Below, piece after piece: positions 1,739 through 15,120 of a stretch of 37,546 bases of DNA (the stretch's first letter is position 1; each line of letters opens with the position of its first letter). The stretch lies in the IMG/VR virus record IMGVR_UViG_2713896773_000006, positions 1 through 37,546 of that record. One strand, written 5' to 3'. A program made the translations under genes and the position numbers. Below the pieces are notes generated by a model. The model did not search any database, was not told the origin of the DNA, and worked only from the letters and a program-made list of their open reading frames with translations. The stretch comes from a virus (Duplodnaviria; Heunggongvirae; Uroviricota; Caudoviricetes).

Positions 1739-2636
1739 TGGCAACCTCCAGTTTCGCTTTGCATTCTATGTAAATGGCTTGTACGTTCTGCTGCAATTTC
1801 ATTCCAGATGTCAGGCGATATGCTTCTGCAAAATATCGCTTCAAATCATCCATGTTTTCTGCCTGAGCCATTTCATCACAAAGAAGTTGTGCTTTTTCCA
1901 TTATTTCCTGCTGGCGTTTCCGTTCATCTTCGCGGATATCTTCCTCTGATTTGTGCGGCATAACTGGTTCAGTCCACACACCTTCTTCTTCGTTTAGTAC
2001 GTGAATAGCACTATCAAGACGTGATGCCTTAGGCCAATACTTGCTTGCACGCTTTACGACCGTCTTTCGCGCCATCTCATTCCAGTGATTTACCCATGGT
2101 CCTTTATCGCTGAATGCTGCCTTGCTTGTTTTCCTTACAGCCTCAATTTCAGCCAGACTCATCTCTTCCGTTAGATAATCACCTGCTGGCGTCTTAACTG
2201 TGCAGTAAACGCCAACGATATCACCACGATCACCGAAGGCGTTGTATTTATGGGTTGGTGCTTTATCAAGCCCGTTTGACTCATAGGTATCGTTAGCATG
2301 AACAAGTTTTGCCTGACCCCATGAGATAACACCAGACTCCATTGCAATATGGAGCAATCCCATATAGCTGATATCAAGGCAAACCATGCCGTCGCGCGGA
2401 ACCAGATAAGCCAGTTTGCTGGCCGGGTTTAAGGTGATGCCGATCGCCGCAACGTTGATGATAGCGTTCTGTGCGCTGGTCGGATTTGCCAGTGCTGTTT
2501 TAGCCAGGTAATCATTTTTCTGGAAATACTGAATTGCAAATTGGCTTTCCTTAGCCCATGTGACTGATTGGTCTGTAACCGCCCCAACAAAGAGCGGCTC
2601 TTGCTGTTTAACGAACTCAACAATGCTCATGCTCAT
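1722..2636 (-). CDS. recT: RecT-family single-strand annealing recombinase
   Basis: 304 aa; segment GPWVNHWNEMARKTVVKRASKYWP matches the conserved RecT block (E. coli RecT GPWVTHWEEMAKKTAIRRLFKYLP, recalled). GAGGGA RBS. Confidence 0.85.
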   Translation of the reverse strand: MSMSIVEFVKQQEPLFVGAVTDQSVTWAKESQFAIQYFQKNDYLAKTALANPTSAQNAIINVAAIGITLNPASKLAYLVPRDGMVCLDISYMGLLHIAMESGVISWGQAKLVHANDTYESNGLDKAPTHKYNAFGDRGDIVGVYCTVKTPAGDYLTEEMSLAEIEAVRKTSKAAFSDKGPWVNHWNEMARKTVVKRASKYWPKASRLDSAIHVLNEEEGVWTEPVMPHKSEEDIREDERKRQQEIMEKAQLLCDEMAQAENMDDLKRYFAEAYRLTSGMKLQQNVQAIYIECKAKLEVASEQTI

Positions 2637-2638
2637 CG

Positions 2639-2935
2639 TTACTGTCCCTCATCAATATCTGTTTGGTGGCGAGCAATTGTCTCTGCCATGTAGCGAATAA
2701 ATTCAGCGGCCCTTTCCTGAAACTCGACGTCATCATCGAATGCTTTGGAAATGGCATTCTTGCTGGCCCCGCGACGTTGCAACTCGTCAACGCACAACGA
2801 TTCCAGTTTGCTCTGTGGCAATCCTTTTTCGAGGTCATCAGCCAGTTCAGATTCACGCTCTTCTCTGGCTATTTGCTGATAATGGCGCGTCCAGTTCTGC
2901 GCCTCGATACGGTCTTGAACGAGATATGCAGCCAT
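2639..2935 (-). CDS. gam: Gam-like host nuclease (RecBCD) inhibitor
   Basis: From internal ATG at 2935 (AGGAG RBS): [98 protein letters not shown] (98 aa), close to the recalled lambda Gam short form. The upstream 43 codons of the track ORF are probably not translated. Confidence 0.8.
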
Positions 2936-3014
2936 AATAGGCTCCTGAAATTTGGTTGTGCGCTGCCCGTCTGCGATAGCCGGACGAGTAGGGGTAATGG
3001 GTGTTTGGTGTGGT

Positions 3015-3257
3015 TTACTTGCCGAGTGCCTTGTCGATGGCGGAACGAGCCATATCAAACTCATCTGTTTGACGGTCTGCTACTCTAACTACAGCCTGCA
3101 GAGCTTCCAGTAATTCAGGCGCTGCAGTAATGAGAGTCTTGTTTTCCTTTCTCGTCATTTCAAGTGGATATCCCTTTCCAAAGACTATGTGATGCTTGTT
3201 TCCCAAGCCCTCTTCATCCCAAAACCACGGACCGGGAGTTCCTTTAAATTCGCTCAT
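3015..3257 (-). CDS. hypothetical protein, [16 protein letters not shown] family (paralog A)
   Basis: 80 aa, [11 protein letters not shown]...[10 protein letters not shown]...KALGK; paralogous to the ORF at 3903..4190. Lies between kil-like and gam. Confidence 0.55.
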
Positions 3258-3260
3258 AAC

Positions 3261-3410
3261 TCACTTCCTGTGCCACGGAAAACCAATTGCCGCCTTCATA
3301 TCGTTGTAGGCTGACATCCACATTTCACTATCACCAATAAATCGGGCTATTACTGCTTTGTTCTGTGCAGCACGAAGCATCTGGTGATTAATGGCTATTT
3401 CATTGTGCAT
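3261..3410 (-). CDS. kil: Kil-like small protein (putative host cell-division inhibitor)
   Basis: 49-aa ORF below the track cutoff: MHNEIAINHQMLRAAQNKAVIARFIGDSEMWMSAYNDMKAAIGFPWHRK. GGAGG RBS. Resembles lambda Kil (FIGD... core, recalled) and sits where kil sits between cIII and gam. Confidence 0.4.
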   Translation of the reverse strand: MHNEIAINHQMLRAAQNKAVIARFIGDSEMWMSAYNDMKAAIGFPWHRK

Positions 3411-3529
3411 AACGCCTCCAGTTGTTTCTTTGCTGCTCTGATTAATTGTTTAACTCGGCGTGATAATTCAGATTCGTGCGGGTAGAAAGCGGACATGACG
3501 CCGCTACCCGCGAGCTGAAAGTGCATCAT
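3395..3529 (-). CDS. cIII: CIII-like protein (putative FtsH inhibitor stabilising CII)
   Basis: 44-aa ORF from ATG at 3529 with AAGGAG RBS: MMHFQLAGSGVMSAFYPHESELSRRVKQLIRAAKKQLEALCTMK. Same pattern as lambda CIII (AG...PSESLLERI.RKL, recalled). The 79-aa track ORF has no RBS for its longer start. Confidence 0.5.
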   Translation of the reverse strand: MMHFQLAGSGVMSAFYPHESELSRRVKQLIRAAKKQLEALCTMK

Positions 3530-3592
3530 GGGTAACTCCTTATATTTGATTGCATAACGAAAACGCCTCAAGTGAAGCGTTATTGGTATGCA

Positions 3593-3619
3593 TATAAAAA
3601 AGCCCTCACACTGGAGGGC
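3593..3619 (-). terminator. putative intrinsic terminator inside the leftward early operon
   Basis: Minus strand: GCCCTC-cagtgt-GAGGGC hairpin followed by TTTTTTAT. Confidence 0.4.
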
Positions 3620-3714
3620 AAAGAAGATTTCCAATAATCAGAACAAGTCGGCTACTGTTTAGTTACGAGCGACATTGCTCCGTGTATTCACTCGTTGGAA
3701 TGAATACACAGTGC

Positions 3715-3903
3715 TTATTCGTCATGCATTTCAGGTAATTCTTCGTATTCGACTCCCCATACGAGTTTACACCAAGTGACTCGCTCATATCTTTTACAAA
3801 AATCAGACCACATAACTTGTGTTCCATCATGGTTTGTTATTACTTCTGTAATATCACCAACACTAACAAAACTGGTATTAGAAGCAGTTATTTTTACTTT
3901 CAT
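3715..3903 (-). CDS. hypothetical small protein
   Basis: 62-aa ORF with ATG start, TAATG-coupled to the upstream gene. Confidence 0.4.
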   Translation of the reverse strand: MKVKITASNTSFVSVGDITEVITNHDGTQVMWSDFCKRYERVTWCKLVWGVEYEELPEMHDE

Positions 3904-4190
3904 TACTTATCCCCAAGAGCTTTTCTGATTGCTGCAAGACCTTTATTAACAGCTTCATACCATTCTGGATATGTTGTCGTTGTTCTATTTTTGGATTGCT
4001 TAAGTAATAACTGAAGTGCTTCGAGAAGGTCAGGTGCTGCCGCTATCAGTAGCGCATCCTCCCTTTCATTTCTTGTTGCTGCTTCAATGTATGTGTCACC
4101 AATCGTCACACCATGGAACGTAGTCATCATCTCGTTGACGTTTCTAACCGTGTACTTCCATTTACCAGGCGTACCCTTAAACTCTTTCAT
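3903..4190 (-). CDS. hypothetical protein, [16 protein letters not shown] family (paralog B)
   Basis: MKEFKGTPGKW...AAPDLLEALQ...KALGDK. ATG at 4190 with GAGGTG RBS preferred over the GTG track start at 4196. Confidence 0.55.
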   Translation of the reverse strand: MKEFKGTPGKWKYTVRNVNEMMTTFHGVTIGDTYIEAATRNEREDALLIAAAPDLLEALQLLLKQSKNRTTTTYPEWYEAVNKGLAAIRKALGDK

Positions 4191-4221
4191 ATCCACCTCT
4201 GTTGTTTATGCCAAAATAATT

Positions 4222-4464
4222 TTAACCATCAACAAACTCTTCTGGTAATTTATCAACCAGTTGATGACTTATTATCAGCCATTTGCCATCCTTCGTTTCG
4301 TATGCATATTTCTGGTCTTTTATCATCATGTGTTCGGCTACTGCCCTAACTGCCTGATCGGTGACATCTTCTCTCTTTCCTACCCACATTCCTTTTTCAG
4401 TGTTTAATGTTCCTTGAAAAATACGACCGCTTAATGGGCTTGCGCCCATAGTTTTTACTCTCAT
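4222..4464 (-). CDS. hypothetical protein
   Basis: 80-aa ORF with ATG start in the leftward operon. Confidence 0.4.
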   Translation of the reverse strand: MRVKTMGASPLSGRIFQGTLNTEKGMWVGKREDVTDQAVRAVAEHMMIKDQKYAYETKDGKWLIISHQLVDKLPEEFVDG

Positions 4465-4528
4465 GTATCAGCTCTCAAATAATTGGTTTGCTGCCAAAAC
4501 AATGAACCATCCGGAAATTCCAGATAGT

Positions 4529-4753
4529 TCATAATTCACTCTTCAATACTTCCAACTTACTAATCGCCGATAGATATCCGCGCTGATAGGGCATCATCAT
4601 TCCTTCGAGCTTGCCACTTCTTAACTCCTCCCTGAGCAATTGTATTGCTTGATCAATAACCTCTGCCTTAGCGTCCTTTATGGCTTGCTTGCGGGGCTTT
4701 GCTTTCTGCTTTGGCAGATTTCTCAAGCATGATGGAATGTATGTTTGATTCAT
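4529..4753 (-). CDS. hypothetical protein
   Basis: 74 aa from ATG at 4753 (GAGG RBS; track start 4756 is GTG). First intact ORF downstream of the N-like remnant. Confidence 0.45.
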   Translation of the reverse strand: MNQTYIPSCLRNLPKQKAKPRKQAIKDAKAEVIDQAIQLLREELRSGKLEGMMMPYQRGYLSAISKLEVLKSEL

Positions 4754-4756
4754 CAC

Positions 4757-4990
4757 TTACCTCGCTGTAACCTGCTTACTTGTACGATGACCAGCTGCGA
4801 AAAGCGCAACTTCTGGCAGGCAGACAGTACCACTCTTCAAATCAGCCTCCTTTTTCTTTTTCTATATCAAAAAGCTGCTTTGCTTTTGCGACTAAAAGCA
4901 AAAAAGCCTTCTCGCTAATGAGCAGCATTGCCGTTCATCCTGAACCCGCCGCGCTCCCGACGCATGGTTTAATGTCGCGCCGTTCGACAT
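4757..4990 (-). pseudogene. N-like (P22 gene 24-like) antiterminator remnant, reading frame interrupted
   Basis: The last 33 codons in one frame (...KSGTVCLPEVALFAAGHRTSKQVTAR*, stop at 4757-4759) resemble the recalled C-terminus of P22 gp24. Upstream that frame hits TAG at 4862-4864; other pieces (MRRERGGFRM..., MLLISEKAF...EKEKGG*) lie in the other two frames. No ORF of 60 codons or more. Confidence 0.4.
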
Positions 4991-4999
4991 GGCTTAACT

Positions 5000-5045
5000 A
5001 TATCCAAAGCTATTATTTCTGTAAATAGCTATAGTTATAAAATAA
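5000..5045. promoter_or_regulatory. putative OL-type operator region (leftward early promoter)
   Basis: Palindrome AAAGCTATT-n9-AATAGCT at 5006-5032 shares the AGCTATT/AATAGCT half-site with the cI-cro intergenic region. Confidence 0.4.
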
Positions 5046-5121
5046 CTACTTTGGTTATTTAGTTGTTGATATATAATGTAATTTATTTTTCTTGAGTGTG
5101 ATGTTTGGTGTGTTTTGGGCA

Positions 5122-5147
5122 ATAAAAAACCCGCAAAAAGCGGGTTT
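5122..5147 (-). terminator. intrinsic terminator downstream of the repressor gene
   Basis: Minus strand: AAACCCGC-ttttt-GCGGGTTT hairpin followed by TTTTTAT, directly 3' of the cI stop. Confidence 0.55.
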
Positions 5148-5164
5148 GTTGTGGTGTGATGAGG

Positions 5165-5896
5165 TTAGTAATCAACTACAGACCACCAGAAAATTCTTCC
5201 GATGATCTCAATGTCACTTAGATTCTTTTCTTCTTGTGGGTATTCCAGTGAGTTAAAGCTTCTAATGCTTACCTTGTCAGGCCCTGTTCGAAAGAGAATC
5301 TTAATGCGTTTCCAACCGTTCTCGTTAATGGCGTAAATCTTTCCGTCAACTATTTTCTTATCGTTGGTGTTAACAGCAACTGTTGTTCCATCAGGAATGT
5401 TTGGCTCCATGCTGTTGCCACGAGCCGGAAAACAAACAACCCCGCTTCCATCACTGTTCGCGCCAACTCTGCGAAGGGTTGATTTGGAAAAGCGCAACAT
5501 AAAGCCGTTGTGATCTTCATCAATCACCCGACCATCCCCGCATGCAAACTCAATATCTTTAAGGTAAGGAATTTCAACTTCATCACCTCTTAAAGGCGTT
5601 TCTCCATCCCATGGGTCCAAACATCCCCACGTGCTTTCATGAGGAATAGAAGATTTTGGATCATAAGGTTCAACTCCCTCATCACGCATTGGCCCAGTTC
5701 CATCGGAAAGCCATTCCGTACGAACTCCAAGCACTTTTGATATTTCAAAAAGTTTGCGCGTATTGCGTGTTTTTCCAGACGTAAGTTTCCAGACGCTTGG
5801 CTGAGACATGCCAACAGCATTGCCAAGAGAAGCCTGAGTAAACCCAGCCTGATCCATCGCGTATGTAAGCCTTTGAGAAAAAGTATCTAGTTTCAT
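5165..5896 (-). CDS. cI: CI-type prophage repressor (HTH N-terminus, S24 LexA-like autocleavage domain)
   Basis: 243 aa. N-terminal HTH (QASLGNAVGMSQPSVWKL), C-terminal Ser/Lys dyad context (GNSMEPNIPDG ... NGWKRIKIL). Divergent from cro, as in lambdoid immunity regions. Confidence 0.9.
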   Translation of the reverse strand: MKLDTFSQRLTYAMDQAGFTQASLGNAVGMSQPSVWKLTSGKTRNTRKLFEISKVLGVRTEWLSDGTGPMRDEGVEPYDPKSSIPHESTWGCLDPWDGETPLRGDEVEIPYLKDIEFACGDGRVIDEDHNGFMLRFSKSTLRRVGANSDGSGVVCFPARGNSMEPNIPDGTTVAVNTNDKKIVDGKIYAINENGWKRIKILFRTGPDKVSIRSFNSLEYPQEEKNLSDIEIIGRIFWWSVVDY

Positions 5897-5899
5897 TCG

Positions 5900-5990
5900 G
5901 ACAACCTATAGCTACAGCTATTATTAGTCAAATATCTAAAGCTATTTACTTTCTGAATAGCTTTGGCTATTATTCTTGTTGTGAATTCAG
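5900..5990. promoter_or_regulatory. putative OR operators / PR-PRM region
   Basis: Between divergent cI and cro: AAAGCTATT-n9-AATAGCTTT palindrome at 5938-5964, plus ATAGCT-ac-AGCTAT at 5907-5920 and a GGCTATTATT repeat. Promoter hexamers not confidently assigned. Confidence 0.5.
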
Positions 5991-6004
5991 CAGGAGTTAT
6001 TTTT

Positions 6005-6235
6005 ATGGTCAACAAGGCTATTAAAGCGGCTATTGACTCAGTAGGAAGTCAGCAAAAGTTAGCTGATGCCTGCGGTGTTAAGCAGCCGTCTGTATGGGCT
6101 TGGTTGCATGGGAAGAAAAGGGTATCCGCTAAAAATGCCAAGCGCATTGAAATGGCTACCAATGGAAGCATCCCTGCATACCTGATTCGCCCTGATTTAT
6201 CCGATTTGTTCCCCAATCCGAACAAAGCAGCTTAA
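6005..6235 (+). CDS. cro: Cro-like repressor
   Basis: 76 aa from ATG at 6005 (AGGAG RBS 9 nt upstream): MVNKAIKAAIDSVGSQQKLADACGVKQPSVWAWLHGKKRVSAKNAKRIEMATNGSIPAYL... with an HTH. Track start 5963 lacks an RBS. Confidence 0.7.
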   Translation: MVNKAIKAAIDSVGSQQKLADACGVKQPSVWAWLHGKKRVSAKNAKRIEMATNGSIPAYLIRPDLSDLFPNPNKAA

Positions 6236-6354
6236 TAAAGCAAATTTTTATACCGAACGGCCCGGTATACGGTCGGGTGCCCGGCGTGGTCAAGGATGAC
6301 TGTCAATGGTGCACGATAAAAAACCAAATTATTTACCTATGGAGATAGTAAGAA

Positions 6355-6651
6355 ATGACACAAACAAGTTACAGCAAGCCAACACAGCGAGAAATTGATC
6401 GCGCTGAAACTGATTTACTCATCAACCTGTCAACGCTTACCCAGCGCGGTCTGGCAAAGATGATTGGCTGTCATGAATCGAAGATAAGCAGAACGGACTG
6501 GAGATTTATTGCTTCGGTCTTGTGTGCTTTTGGAATGGCATCAGACATCAGTCCGATTAGCATGGCTTTTAAGTATGCGCTTGATGAAATCACAAAGAAA
6601 AAATCCCCGGCCGCCACCGAGGATTTTAAGCAAATTGATATGCAATTCTGA
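6355..6651 (+). CDS. cII: CII-like transcriptional activator
   Basis: 98 aa; C-terminus KKKSPAATEDFKQIDMQF parallels lambda CII KKRPAATERSEQIQMEF (recalled); HTH in the middle. GGAGA RBS. Confidence 0.8.
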   Translation: MTQTSYSKPTQREIDRAETDLLINLSTLTQRGLAKMIGCHESKISRTDWRFIASVLCAFGMASDISPISMAFKYALDEITKKKSPAATEDFKQIDMQF

Positions 6652-6683
6652 GGGAATTACTGGATCAATCCACAGGAGTAATT

Positions 6684-6845
6684 ATGACAAAACGTCGTAA
6701 GAAATACCAGGAAAAAGAAGAGATTCGACACCCTGATTCACCTGAGGGATTAGTGGTAGCCGCAGCAAATAACAGGGCTTTCGCAGAGCGCCTTGTTGGT
6801 GTTTACAGACTAGCCAAAGCAGGAGTGAAACATGGGCGTCGTTAA
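6684..6845 (+). CDS. small hypothetical basic protein (53 aa)
   Basis: MTKRRKKYQEKEEIRHPDSPEGLVVAAANNRAFAERLVGVYRLAKAGVKHGRR; AGGAG RBS. Below the ORF-track cutoff. Confidence 0.3.
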   Translation: MTKRRKKYQEKEEIRHPDSPEGLVVAAANNRAFAERLVGVYRLAKAGVKHGRR

Positions 6846-7722
6846 GTTAGCTGATTACAGGCATAACCCTGTACAACATCAGGAGGCATCCAGTATGGGG
6901 TATGTCTCTATACACCGCCAGTTTATGGACAGCAGGCTCTATAAGGACTCTCAGGCAGTACATCTTTGGCTTCACTTAATCCTCAAGGCTAATCACGAAT
7001 CTACTGTCGTCAATACGGATATCGGTCCGATAACTGTTGATCGCGGTCAGATGATAACTGGACGCCCGTCGCTGGTCAGAGAAACATTCATCCCCGACAA
7101 CAAAGTTAGGAGCTTATTACGGACTTTTGAGTCGAAAGGGATGCTTAATATTTGCTCGATGGGGAAGAAATTTAGCCTGTTTACAATCGTTAAATATGAC
7201 GATTTTCAGGCAAAAAATTGTCCAACGGTTGTCCAACGGTTGTCCAACGCAAACACCAGTAATGGCGCGGCTCTCAGCGGAGATTGTCCAACGGTTGTCC
7301 AACGGTTGTCCATAAACAATAATATAAATAATATCTCTAATACTGACGTATTAGAGAGTGCCACAGCAGACAAAAAGTCTGACAAGAAAAAACCTTCCGT
7401 CAGCTGTCAGGATGTTGTCGATGCTTACCACGAAATCCTTCCTGAAGCGCCAAGAATCCGCGCACTGAATGACAAGCGTAAAAACCAGATCCGAACGTTC
7501 TGGCGCAAAGCCGGAGTGATAACCCGCCAGCTTGACGGGCATGGGTTCACGATGCAGGACTGGAGAAATTATTTGAGCTACGTAGGCGAAAATTGCCGAT
7601 GGATGTTCGAAGAGCGCCCAAACCATCAACGCGGAACCGTCTGGCACAAAAAGGGATTTGATTTCCTGCTTAACGACAATACCTACCTGAAAGTTCGTGA
7701 GGGTGAACACGATGACCGATAA
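6832..7722 (+). CDS. replication initiator (lambda O-like / P22 gp18-like), iterons embedded
   Basis: 296 aa directly upstream of, and overlapping, the DnaB-type helicase gene. The central coding region carries direct repeats, as ori does inside lambda O. Alternative start ATG 6895 has a GGAGG RBS. Confidence 0.7.
   Translation: MGVVKLADYRHNPVQHQEASSMGYVSIHRQFMDSRLYKDSQAVHLWLHLILKANHESTVVNTDIGPITVDRGQMITGRPSLVRETFIPDNKVRSLLRTFESKGMLNICSMGKKFSLFTIVKYDDFQAKNCPTVVQRLSNANTSNGAALSGDCPTVVQRLSINNNINNISNTDVLESATADKKSDKKKPSVSCQDVVDAYHEILPEAPRIRALNDKRKNQIRTFWRKAGVITRQLDGHGFTMQDWRNYLSYVGENCRWMFEERPNHQRGTVWHKKGFDFLLNDNTYLKVREGEHDDR
7218..7345. repeat. candidate replication origin: about six TTGTCCAACGG iterons in two clusters plus an AT-rich tract
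   Basis: Directly visible: TTGTCCAACGG at 7218, 7229, 7240 (variant), 7284, 7295, 7306 (partial), then ATAAACAATAATATAAATAATATCTCTAATA. Confidence 0.6.
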
Positions 7723-10177
7723 TTTTTATGCGCCGCCCCATAGCATCGAGGCAGAGCAGGCGGTGATTGGTGGATTGCTTCTGGATGATGACAGCAGTGA
7801 GCGCGTCCAGAAAGTTCTAGCGATGCTGAAGCCCGATTCATTTTACAGCAGATCACACAAAATCCTTTTCGAAGAAATAACCAGAATGCACCGGGAGCAA
7901 AAGCCAGTAGATGGCCTGACGCTTTTCGATGAACTGGAGCGTAAATCGTTAACGGCGTCTGTTGGCGGTTTTGCTTATATCGCTGAGATCGCAAAGAACA
8001 CGCCAAGCGCCGCAAACATCGTTGCCTATGCAATGCAGGTTCGTGAAACCGCAATGGAACGCTACGCCATCAACCGCATGACTGAAGCGACGGAATTGCT
8101 CTATTCCCGCAACGGAATGACTGCAACGCAGAAGTACGAAGCTATTCAGGCGATTTTCACGCAACTGACAGACCATGCAAAAACCGGATCGCGTCGCGGC
8201 CTTCGCTCATTTGGTGAGGTCATGGAAGACTGGGTTAGCGACCTTGATAAGCGATTTGACCCGTCAGGCGAACAACGAGGAATGAGCACAGGAATACCAT
8301 CGCTGGACAGGATGCTGTCACCGAAAGGTCTGGTGAAAGGCTCTCTGTTTGTCATTGGCGCTCGCCCTAAGATGGGGAAAGCGCAACCGCTTAATTCACG
8401 CATTTTGCTTGCTGATGGTTCATGGACAACATTTCGTGACGTATGTGTTGGAGATTCCCTAGCATCAGTGGATGGACAACCATCATTCGTGTCTGGAGTT
8501 TTTCCTCAAGGGGAGCGAGATATTTACCGAGTTACGTTCTCTGACGGAAGAACCGTTGATTGCGCGGATGATCATTTGTGGGAAATTCATAGTAACCGTA
8601 TTACCGGTGGCGTTGATGTTGTAGACACCTGCCGCCTACGGGACATGATGGAATGCGTTCGCTATCAAAGCCGCATTCATGTTCCTGGTATTAGCGGTGA
8701 CTTCGGATTGCCTGTTGATTTAGGGATTAGCCCATGGCTGTTAGGTGCGTTACTTGGCGATGGAAATCTTGCAGGTACGCCACGAATCAGCATGACGGAA
8801 CCATACATCATTGAGCGAGTAAGATCTGAAGTGGGTGACGATATTGAAGTCAGACATGTTTCTGGCTGCGATTACTCCCTACCTCACAAGTTTAGCCGCA
8901 AATTATCTCTTACGCGGGTTATGCAACGGCTTGGTATCTACGGCCGGATGTCAGAGATTAAAATTATCCCGGATATTATTTTTTCTGCTGATAAGCAAAC
9001 TCGTATTGATGTTCTATGCGGATTACTTGAAACCGATGGTTGGGTTGAAGGAAATAATGCCCTGCGCTTTAGCTCGGCAAGCAAGTTCCTGTCAGATGGT
9101 GTAAAGCGGCTGGTGCATTCTCTTGGTGGCGTGTGTCGTATGACAACCAAACAGGAGCCGAAATTCAGTTATAAGGGAGAAATGCGCAAAGGTATGGATG
9201 CCCATATTTGCGCAATCAGGTTGCCTGATGAGGTTCTATCACACATAAAATCTCCACGCCTGAAGCAAAAATTCACTGCAAAACGCATCAAAACAAGTGA
9301 GCCTGTTATCACGTCGGTTGAGTATATTGGACGTGAAGAGTGCATTTGCATCATGGTATCCCACGAGAGACATTTGTATGCAACTGACGGATACATTCTA
9401 ACCCACAACACCACGCTATACAGCCAGATGGCAATCAATTGCGCAGTGCATGAGAAAAAGCCCGCTCTGATGTTCAGCCTTGAAATGCCAGGTGATCAGA
9501 TACTGGAAAAACTGGTAGGGCAGAAGTCTGGTGTTAACCCGAATATTTTTTACCTTCCGGCGACAAATGACGCCGATGACGGCTATCAGGGTGATTACGA
9601 TGGTGACTTCAACAGGGCGATCGAAACAGCCAATCGCTTGAGTGAAATCGACATGCTTTACATCGACGACACGCCGGGATTATCTCTGGCTCAAATCGTC
9701 AGCGAAAGCCGTCGAATCAAGCGAGAAAAAGGATGTGTTGGCATGATTCTGGTCGATTACCTGACACTAATGACCGCTGAGAAGGCCGATCGCAACGACC
9801 TTGCTTACGGCATGATCACCAAAGGACTGAAGAACCTTGCCAAAGAGCTTGATTGCGTTGTTGTGCTTCTGACACAGCTTAACCGCGCACTGGAAAGCCG
9901 AACCAATAAACGCCCATTACCAAGTGACTCACGAGATACAGGGCAGATTGAACAGGATTGCGATTATTGGGTCGGGATCCATCGTGAAGGCGCTTTTGAT
10001 GACAGTGTTCCACCTGGGGAAACCGAACTAATCCTTCGTCTCAATCGTCATGGCTATACCGGCACGGTGTATTGCATTCAGGCAAATGGCGCTATTTATG
10101 ACACAGACCAACAGTCTGCTGAAATGCGCCGCCGTGAACGTGAGGAACCGCAGTCCAAGAAGAAAGGAGGATTCTGA
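7712..10177 (+). CDS. dnaB: DnaB-family replicative helicase with an intein in the P-loop
   Basis: N-terminus MTDNFYAPPHSIEAEQAVIGGLL is DnaB-like. The Walker A is split: ...GARPKMGK | 343 inserted aa | TTLYSQMAINCAVHEKKPALMFSLEMP... (E. coli DnaB ARPSMGKTTFAMNL...LIFSLEMP, recalled). ATG at 7712 preferred over the GTG track start 7697. Confidence 0.9.
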   Translation: MTDNFYAPPHSIEAEQAVIGGLLLDDDSSERVQKVLAMLKPDSFYSRSHKILFEEITRMHREQKPVDGLTLFDELERKSLTASVGGFAYIAEIAKNTPSAANIVAYAMQVRETAMERYAINRMTEATELLYSRNGMTATQKYEAIQAIFTQLTDHAKTGSRRGLRSFGEVMEDWVSDLDKRFDPSGEQRGMSTGIPSLDRMLSPKGLVKGSLFVIGARPKMGKAQPLNSRILLADGSWTTFRDVCVGDSLASVDGQPSFVSGVFPQGERDIYRVTFSDGRTVDCADDHLWEIHSNRITGGVDVVDTCRLRDMMECVRYQSRIHVPGISGDFGLPVDLGISPWLLGALLGDGNLAGTPRISMTEPYIIERVRSEVGDDIEVRHVSGCDYSLPHKFSRKLSLTRVMQRLGIYGRMSEIKIIPDIIFSADKQTRIDVLCGLLETDGWVEGNNALRFSSASKFLSDGVKRLVHSLGGVCRMTTKQEPKFSYKGEMRKGMDAHICAIRLPDEVLSHIKSPRLKQKFTAKRIKTSEPVITSVEYIGREECICIMVSHERHLYATDGYILTHNTTLYSQMAINCAVHEKKPALMFSLEMPGDQILEKLVGQKSGVNPNIFYLPATNDADDGYQGDYDGDFNRAIETANRLSEIDMLYIDDTPGLSLAQIVSESRRIKREKGCVGMILVDYLTLMTAEKADRNDLAYGMITKGLKNLAKELDCVVVLLTQLNRALESRTNKRPLPSDSRDTGQIEQDCDYWVGIHREGAFDDSVPPGETELILRLNRHGYTGTVYCIQANGAIYDTDQQSAEMRRREREEPQSKKKGGF
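8381..9409 (+). mobile_element. intein (343 aa) with LAGLIDADG homing-endonuclease domain, probably class 3
   Basis: Insert begins with Ala and ends ...ILTHN, with +1 Thr. Two LAGLIDADG-like motifs (LLGALLGDGNL, LCGLLETDGWV). Block-B-like DDHLW, block-F-like Cys (EECICIM) and Thr before the terminal His-Asn give the WCT pattern. Boundaries inferred from the extein alignment. Confidence 0.8.
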
Positions 10178-13549: not shown

Positions 13550-13624
13550 GGGTCAGTCGTATAAAGGTCATTACGGAAGGCTGTTAACCTTCTTATCGTG
13601 GTTCGAGTCCACGCTGTCCCGCCA
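13550..13624 (+). tRNA. tRNA-Asn(GUU)-like, one acceptor-stem mismatch
   Basis: Hand-folded cloverleaf: acceptor GGGTCAG/CTGTCCC (T-T mismatch at pair 4), anticodon stem GAAGG/CCTTC with loop CTGTTAA, T-arm CGTGG-TTCGAGT-CCACG, 3' GCCA. Confidence 0.5.
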
Positions 13625-13629
13625 AACAT

Positions 13630-13705
13630 GCTGGTTTAGCTCCAATGGTAGAGCAGTCGCCTTGTAAGCGAATGGGTAGCGGTTCAAGTCCGTTAACCAG
13701 CACCA
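13630..13705 (+). tRNA. tRNA-Thr(UGU)
   Basis: Hand-folded: acceptor GCTGGTT/AACCAGC, D-arm GCTC-CAATGGTA-GAGC, anticodon loop CTTGTAA, T-arm AGCGG-TTCAAGT-CCGTT, 3' ACCA. Confidence 0.65.
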
Positions 13706-14731: not shown

Positions 14732-15120
14732 GCAGAGTCACCGCGATTATCTCCGCTCTGGTTATCTGCATCATCGTCTGCCTGTCATGGGCTGTTAATC
14801 ATTACCGTGATAACGCCATGACCTACAAAGAGCAGCGCGATAAAGCCACATCCATCATCGCTGATATGCAGAAGCGTCAACGTGATGTAGCAGAACTCGA
14901 TGCCAGATATACAAAGGAGCTTGCTGATGCTAACGCGACTATCGAAAGTCTCCGTGCTGATGTTTCTGCTGGCCGTAAGCGGCTGCAAGTCGCCGCCACC
15001 TGTGCAAAGTCAACGACCGGAGCCAGCAGNNNNNNNNNNNNNNNNNNNNNNNNNNNNNNNNNNNNNNNNNNNNNNNNNNACTACCTGCAGGAATACATCA
15101 GGACGCAATGCCTGAAATAA
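14728..15120 (+). CDS. Rz: i-spanin Rz, interrupted by an assembly gap
   Basis: [39 protein letters not shown]... is lambda Rz-like. 50 Ns at 15030-15079 fall inside the gene, so the C-terminal frame and true length are uncertain. Confidence 0.75.
14927..15115 (+). CDS. Rz1: o-spanin Rz1 (lipoprotein) embedded in Rz +1 frame, crosses the gap
   Basis: AAGGAG RBS, then [34 protein letters not shown] with a lipobox (LAVSGC) and proline-rich mature region. 3' end undefined because of the N run. Confidence 0.6.
15030..15079. other. assembly gap (50 N)
   Basis: Run of 50 n characters directly visible. Confidence 1.

Follow-up and report, generated by a model that had tools for sequence, protein, structure and literature searches.

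The antiterminator RNAs putL and putR of phage HK022 were reportedly described by King, Banik-Maiti and Weisberg in 1996-97. A cryo-EM structure of HK022 put RNA was reported by Hwang et al. in 2022 (PMC9378689), and the RNA binds the β′ zinc-binding domain of RNA polymerase, suppressing pausing as well as intrinsic and Rho-dependent termination with no phage proteins (PMC9378689). In HK022, putL follows the start of PL immediately, and putR lies ~270 nt beyond that of PR (PMC9378689). The outermost paired residues of the RNA are A3 (first) and C72 (last), the residues of putL sensitive to mutation are A9, U28, G35 and U68 together with a -10-like NANNAT at +23 to +28, and the backtracking pause that putL suppresses lies 21 nt downstream of stem II (PMC9378689). 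The gene for Nun (phrog_5632), an exclusion protein that arrests transcription, is found in HK022, HK75 and O276, directly after putL and a hairpin. The other system close to the present locus is the protein-based one of P22 (gp24) and mEpX2 (N), whose antiterminator (PF25694, phrog_271) is encoded by the first gene leftward of PL.

The window (the whole 37,546-nt stretch of phage DNA that was analysed) very probably represents a P22-like (Lederbergvirus-type) temperate coliphage with HK022-style RNA-based early antitermination, in which an N tail is left as a recombination scar. It resembles HK022 in the placement of putL and putR, in its identical putR, in putL from +20 to +74, in the downstream U-run and hairpin, and in the absence of N and nut. 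It differs from HK022 in two compensated pair changes in the first putL helix, in an immunity region (cI and operators) other than that of HK022, in virion genes that are P22-like rather than HK97-like, and in the absence of nun, whose place is taken by an N-gene tail and the start of another gene, here called gene X. With P22 gp24 and mEpX2 N the locus shares the same slot leftward of PL, and with mEpX2 the last 24 N codons, which are identical, and the same 75-aa gene next; unlike those phages, it encodes neither the Arg-rich boxB-binding motif nor the central part of the protein, and has no boxA or boxB. The main value of the analysis lies in correction, from an apparent pseudogene or assembly problem to a complete, well-understood RNA-based antitermination system. 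The locus also provides a clean example of module exchange between N/nut and put among lambdoid and P22-like phages.

The positions of cI, cro and cII set the orientation of PL and PR, with early-left transcription running leftward from just below 5030. The features of the immunity region and of the two put sites are as follows.

5165-5896, minus strand: cI-type repressor (HTH and peptidase S24), with its own terminator at 5147-5127
5996-6235, plus strand: cro
6355-6651, plus strand: cII
4997-5025, minus strand: PL promoter (-35 TTTACA at 5025-5020, 17-nt spacer, -10 TATAGT at 5002-4997)
4918-4989, minus strand: putL antiterminator RNA, ~72 nt (HK022 nt 2-74), directly after PL
4900-4905, minus strand: run of six U (HK022 +87 to +92)
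~4869-4912, minus strand: conserved hairpin after putL (RNAfold), common to HK022, whose shared homology reaches 4860
6251-6316, plus strand: putR antiterminator RNA, in the cro-cII spacer

In a promoter scan, PL was the top sigma-70-like site in 3400-6400 (10 of 12 matches), and by alignment to HK022 PL/putL its transcription would start at the A at 4990. With the PL -10 at 5002-4997, putL begins at ~4989, where a put RNA is expected. A megablast search of 4400-5200 against phage genomes matched 4860-4996 to HK022, HK75 and O276 with 95% identity over 137 nt (E 7e-54), a match that takes in putL and the end of the PL promoter; in alignments the HK022 homology begins at the transcription start (~4990) and ends at 4860. 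The O276 record (MH547045) annotates the matching stretch, beside the PL -10, as a putL misc_RNA, 'antiterminator RNA'.

Residues are numbered here as in PMC9378689, on the HK022 transcript AUAGACGAACGG..., HK022 nt n corresponding to window position 4992-n for n of at least 4. From +20 to +74 the window putL has the HK022 sequence without differences, all changes falling in nt 1-19 (substitutions at nt 5, 17 and 19 and a 1-nt deletion near nt 3). These convert helix S1 from AGACG...CGUCU in HK022 to UGUCG...CGACA in the window, where the 3-7/15-19 duplex is still fully paired because the changes are compensatory (A5-U17 to U-A, A3-U19 to U-A), and no other S1 variant is as common in the 63 putL-bearing loci collected below. 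The mutation-sensitive residues A9, U28, G35 and U68 and the -10-like element (AACCAT at +23 to +28) are all unchanged. The helices of putL fall at 4989-4985/4977-4973 (S1), 4982-4978/4962-4958 (S2) and 4956-4920 (stem II).

Downstream of putL, the U6 run at 4900-4905 is the same in HK022 and O276, and by counting positions from stem II it would be the site of the pause that putL suppresses. The hairpin at 4869-4912 overlaps a feature labelled 'put. nutL equivalent' in the 1989 HK022 record X16093 (L007, 1209-1242); that label dates from 1989, and the hairpin is not an N-utilisation site. The hairpin was also considered as an intrinsic terminator, and fails the terminator scan.

The putR of the window matches that of O276/HK022 at 100% identity, from TACCGAACGG (at 6251) into cII, and lies ~270 nt downstream of the predicted PR (-35 at 5945-5950, -10 at 5968-5973). 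The first-pass annotation, made from the letters alone, had seen no boxA in the cro-cII spacer, and this holds, CGCTCTT being absent from the whole of 2863-7609; boxA is missing from the spacer because putR sits there.

Pairing was examined in nine distinct putL and six distinct putR variants, using a two-stem fold in which stem I comprises 3-7/15-19 and 10-14/30-34, and stem II spans 36-72. PMC9378689 gives the 3-7/15-19 duplex, the boundary pairs of A3 and C72, and U68 as unpaired; the other helix pairs are our own reading of complementarity and go beyond that paper. The variants were aligned by hand, since MAFFT placed the length difference between putL and putR in stem II instead of in the stem I loop, and the 20 helix pairs were counted in Python. 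All 20 are standard both in the window putL and in the window putR. Across the 15 variants, seven of the 20 pairs (4-18, 5-17, 14-30, 37-71, 40-67, 41-66 and 48-58) occur as two or three pair types with pairing kept, pair 5-17 as A-U, U-A and C-G, and frequent mismatches are confined to the terminal pair 3-19. The invariance of the putL stem II core is uninformative, because the loci were collected by an exact 28-mer from stem II. In position, homology and pairing the two elements agree with those of HK022, as putL also does in its key residues, and they constitute, as judged from their sequence, an HK022-type put system.

Rfam 15 gave no match to either put site. Its scans, one of the whole window at the gathering threshold and one of 4700-6450 relaxed to E<=1, yielded nothing beyond two tRNAs and weak chance matches on the cI terminator. 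A put model is apparently missing from Rfam 15, near-identical HK022-type copies being unmatched as well. The RNAfold minimum free energy structure differs from the cryo-EM fold, and the stability of the two regions is not unusual relative to shuffled sequences (z -0.99 for the putL region, -0.24 for the putR region); such a mismatch is no surprise in a pseudoknotted RNA whose folding takes place on the polymerase, and the prediction gives no independent support.

By analogy with HK022, put would act in the window phage as it does there, including its dependence on the β′ zinc-binding domain. Transcription from PL (start ~4990) would immediately yield the ~72-nt putL RNA (4989-4918), and transcription from PR would yield putR (6251-6316) after cro. 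The nascent RNA would fold into two stems, of which the first is a pseudoknot-like helix containing a minor-groove triplex, and would bind the β′ zinc-binding domain of the very polymerase that made it. The modified polymerase would then resist pausing and both intrinsic and Rho-dependent termination for kilobases without a phage protein, an N gene, boxA and boxB not being required, and transcription from PL would be carried past the terminator-like sites at 4532-4502, 3619-3602 and 3581-3562.

The stretch between PL and the 75-aa gene had been described at first pass as lacking any ORF of 60 codons or more and as carrying frame-broken pieces of an N gene. On the leftward strand the first statement stands: the ORFs in 4757-5000 encode 27 aa (4757-4840, from TTG), 28 aa (4842-4928) and 32 aa (4892-4990), with no others, and TAG stops lie where described, at 4864-4862, 4894-4892 and 4917-4915. 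It fails on the plus strand, where an 82-aa TTG-initiated ORF runs at 4780-5028, antisense across putL, the hairpin and the PL promoter; gene callers could report it, and it is almost certainly spurious. The supposed pieces of N in the other frames prove to be the HK022-type putL RNA together with the conserved hairpin that follows it. What reads as 'MRRERGG...' or 'MSNGATLNH...' is a translation of the putL RNA gene, and the Pfam N_peptide profile matches neither of the two upstream ORFs long enough to test at E<=1. The finding that a functional N gene is absent is borne out by Pfam and tblastn, which recover only the C-terminal tail of N.

Searches of the 37.5-kb window with tblastn revealed no N-terminal half of N, no Nun and no lambda N. 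Queried with mEpX2 N and with lambda N, tblastn gave no other N match in the window at E<0.07, and for a Nun homologue after putL the best match in the window to HK022-type Nun has E 0.69. Neither the PL nor the PR leader contains a boxA CGCTCTT(A), the leaders being occupied by putL and putR. The locus is not a member of the N family, since it has just the final quarter of the profile and no nut sites, and the phage would not need N, both putL and putR being present and intact.

What remains of N, and what precedes it, can be read from the following features.

4832-4859, minus strand: gene X remnant (leader, Shine-Dalgarno AAGGAGG at 4852-4846, codons TTG AAG AGT)
4757-4831, minus strand: N 3′-end relic of P22/mEpX2 type, 24 codons and stop
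4757-4840, minus strand: chimeric ORF of 27 codons, the start of gene X fused in frame to the N tail, product MKSGTVCLPEVALFAAGHRTSKQVTAR
4529-4756, minus strand: 75-aa gene (phrog_5305), found after N in mEpX2-type phages, its GTG/ATG start abutting the stop of the relic ORF

The relic ORF matches PF25694 N_peptide at profile positions 76-100 of 100 only (36.6 bits, E 6.5e-9) as well as phrog_271, 'anti-termination protein N-like' (PHROG), and a tblastn search of the whole window with mEpX2 N recovered only aa 58-87, at 4849-4760 (E 2.7e-13). The resemblance of the predicted tail (...VALFAAGHRTSKQVTAR) to N is far beyond chance. The relic lacks the Arg-rich motif and the first ~63 codons, and its predicted product is unable to work as an N protein. 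N homology upstream of 4840 in another frame was considered and rejected, the tblastn match reaching 4849 through non-homologous residues only. An intact N tail of 33 codons had been proposed, of which 24 codons and the stop are N-derived and the remaining upstream codons are not. NCBIfam has nothing for the relic, for mEpX2 N, for Nun or for gene X.

The 28 nt upstream of the N tail align in DNA with the leader of gene X, a 147-aa gene (phrog_13686) that directly follows putL in other put-type prophages and of which only the 5′ end is present here. This segment, AAAAGAAAAAGGAGGCTGATTTGAAGAGT, lies between the end of the HK022 homology (4860) and the N tail and is not part of N. It is identical in the E. 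coli SD134209 and UTAK-1 prophages, where the 147-aa CDS starts at the TTG; gene X also lies directly 3′ of putL in many O111-type strains, and the gene-X-type junction string is present in 11 loci. The start of gene X is real, since its divergent homologues in L042 and L019 keep the MKS...TAMR N-terminus. Gene X itself was seen in L005 (1078-1521, minus strand), L006 (1071-1514, minus strand) and 10 further loci, mostly O111-type and other E. coli prophages; its occupation of the slot of HK022 nun prompts the guess that it has an exclusion function.

The window is a recombinant of two parents, as 4820-5010 is 97-98% identical to gene-X-type prophages and the sequence from 4840 leftward matches mEpX2 (4459-4840, 98% identity by megablast, a match that takes in the last part of the 87-aa N gene and the 75-aa gene next to it). 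The crossover is placed to within about 10 nt, and probably occurred in a short patch (TTGAAG(A)GTG...) where the first codons of gene X resemble the N tail. A cross between a put-type phage with the 147-aa gene after putL and an mEpX2-like N-type phage would leave the ribosome-binding site and TTG of gene X joined to a non-functional N tail; we infer both the direction and the site of this crossover from the sequence alignments.

The same junction recurs elsewhere. A 50-nt string across it is identical in six other sources, namely phage APC_JM3.2 (MG197996), E. coli PEC122 and four IMG/VR contigs. The first of these is a podovirus isolated from a plaque, for which a burst of ~45 was measured and whose genome was sequenced at 1,254x coverage (PMC5754480); its productivity shows that phages with exactly such an N-less early-left region are viable. 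A scan of IMG/VR with the exact 28-mer of the putL core gave 56 loci, and 63 with the annotated loci and the window, in which putL is followed by:

Nun of HK022 type: 7 of 63 loci
divergent Nun-like gene: 2 of 63 loci
gene X directly: 12 of 63 loci
24-codon N tail of window type: 7 of 63 loci
1-nt variant of the window type (L040): 1 of 63 loci
HNH endonuclease (PF13392) and a longer N-derived remnant: 9 of 63 loci
other ORFs and a 45-codon N tail (L011): 1 of 63 loci
full-length N-like ORF (L026): 1 of 63 loci
orf75-like gene without N tail: 2 of 63 loci
none of these types: 21 of 63 loci

The slot after putL is thus variable, holding Nun, gene X, an HNH endonuclease and N tail, or, as in the window, a bare N tail, and N tails adjoin putL in 18 of the 63 loci. 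Five of the longer N remnants beside putL contain an in-frame TAG, and in L040 the loss of one A makes the Shine-Dalgarno-preceded TTG ORF read a different frame of the N tail; on these two grounds the tails are read as decaying scars and not as a conserved peptide. The occurrence of N tails of differing length in about a quarter of putL loci suggests that put cassettes have repeatedly replaced nutL and the 5′ part of N. Within the limited literature searched, no paper describing N-tail relics beside putL was found.

In L008, L013, L015, L018, L021, L035 and L054 (also L030 and L052), a 177-aa HNH endonuclease (PF13392, 56 bits) lies between putL and a 44-codon N tail, an arrangement that spans 62-725 nt downstream of the putL core and in which five of the N tails have an in-frame TAG. 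It suggests that a cassette of putL and HNH endonuclease replaced nutL and the 5′ half of N, possibly by endonuclease-driven conversion. In L052 (Salmonella phage UPF_BP1), the middle of a P22-type N is joined to a tail similar to that of L036. In L036, a divergent relative of HK022 Nun (119 aa, 66% identity) is encoded ahead of a 47-aa ORF, 398-541 nt downstream of the putL core, whose end (...ERKNHRTWYKDANPFGNKIHAVQKSRGKSTPLI) we take to resemble the lambda N C-terminus, which would make it a lambda-type N relic beside putL.

In L026 (IMGVR_UViG_2858461253_000003), put and an apparently intact N coexist on one genome. This contig has an HK022-like PL, a putL core at 3218-3245, a putR-like element at 1975-2040 (minus strand) and an N-like ORF at 3872-4150, which is full-length (92 aa; PF25694, 39 bits), lies ~630 nt after putL and has a hairpin, GCGCCTATACGTGGGCGC, ahead of it. 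Its putR variant has an altered stem II loop, GGUCAGGUAAGACUG, and a tRNA-like 3′ end, GGTTCGATTCTCGC, lies between putL and the N-like ORF.

Among readings other than an inert scar, the one that survives best, though unlikely, is that the 27-codon ORF is expressed and important, either as an RNA polymerase-touching C-terminal peptide of N, which might assist put or hinder N-dependent superinfecting phages, or, more modestly, as an upstream ORF feeding ribosomes to the 75-aa gene. The AAGGAGG noted at first pass is confirmed at 4852-4846, a perfect match 5 nt ahead of the TTG at 4840, and the suggestion of a short TTG-initiated product is indeed conceivable for a 27-aa ORF with so strong a Shine-Dalgarno. 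The ORF also has the same sequence in each of the seven window-type sources (100% conserved), PGAP calls it 'transcriptional antitermination N peptide' in PEC122, and it ends in a TAA directly before the GTGATG of the 75-aa gene; in L040 the alternative-frame ORF ends at the same start, its TGA overlapping the ATG, which fits coupling. Judging from where the ORFs end in the window and in L040, the short ORF may couple translation into the 75-aa gene. Against a role for the peptide, the 1-nt shift of frame in L040 means that it is not the amino-acid sequence that has been kept, in five loci the longer N tails next to putL have in-frame stops, the seven identical copies hold no divergence from which selection could be read, and the peptide has neither the Arg-rich RNA-binding motif nor the central part of N.

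Two further proposals, graded together and quite improbable, are that the free 27-residue C-terminal peptide of N acts on RNA polymerase in trans and that, elsewhere, put cassettes are spread by endonuclease. The C-terminal part of lambda N is its polymerase-contacting region. If true, the 27-residue peptide could, for instance, stand in for Nun in minimal form by interfering with superinfecting phages that depend on N, or modulate the put-modified polymerase, and the recurrent order of putL, HNH gene and truncated N would reflect the spread of put cassettes, with an endonuclease driving the replacement of nutL and the 5′ half of N.

That N was lost and nothing replaced it, leaving a defective or cryptic prophage with no early antitermination at all, would account for the failure to find N, Nun or nut sites in the window, but it is very unlikely: both put sites are intact and correctly placed with only compensatory changes, the productive APC_JM3.2 has the same early-left arrangement, and the replication and virion modules of the window are complete and resemble those of live P22-like phages.

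The first-pass annotation had left open indel errors in a draft assembly; that sequencing or assembly indels broke an intact N gene of ~90-100 codons is now hardly credible. The record is a draft with a 50-N gap, as stated there (located at 15030-15079), and the region does contain a T6 run and an A-rich stretch. However, the T run (4900-4905), although present near a frame junction as described, is conserved in HK022, and the supposed homopolymer at 4851-4860 reads AAAAGAAAAA on the minus strand and is not pure. The stretch from PL to the tail is HK022 putL and hairpin with N in no frame, so that no pattern of indels gives the N-terminal half of N. An assembly error is excluded, as six further sources, independent of this record, carry the same junction, including a phage genome sequenced at 1,254x. 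As for an N-type antiterminator supplied by another phage gene or a co-resident prophage, the L026 contig indicates that put and N can coexist, but the window has no other N match (tblastn, E<0.07) and no boxA in its PL or PR leaders for N to act on, and this reading has next to no probability.

The RNA-based reading thus preferred involves a mechanism that is already known, and the same arrangement is already present, unannotated, in public genomes. Annotation pipelines miss put: Rfam gives no match, the stretch is unannotated in APC_JM3.2, and PGAP labels the 27-codon relic 'N peptide'. What is added here is a precisely mapped crossover between put and N, and recurring N-tail relics beside putL.

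The exact 28-nt core of putL stem II also occurs (L064-L068) in Kluyvera sichuanensis, Siccibacter colletis (twice), Pantoea stewartii and E. coli, and putL segments of 70-77 nt with 97-99% identity were found by megablast in Salmonella phage UPF_BP1 and Erwinia phage phiEt88. The ~72-nt put element, to judge by these matches, travels as a sharply bounded module across the Enterobacterales.

Elsewhere in the window, two adjacent tRNA genes lie at 13550-13621 and 13630-13702 (plus strand; Rfam tRNA, 55 and 61 bits), while its close relative APC_JM3.2 reportedly lacks tRNA genes (PMC5754480). An 826-aa replicative helicase is encoded at 7697-10177 (plus strand). An insert of ~350 aa, which matches LAGLIDADG_3 at threshold (22.5 bits), separates its DnaB N-terminal domain from the C-terminal one, and the protein is accordingly read as an intein-containing DnaB.
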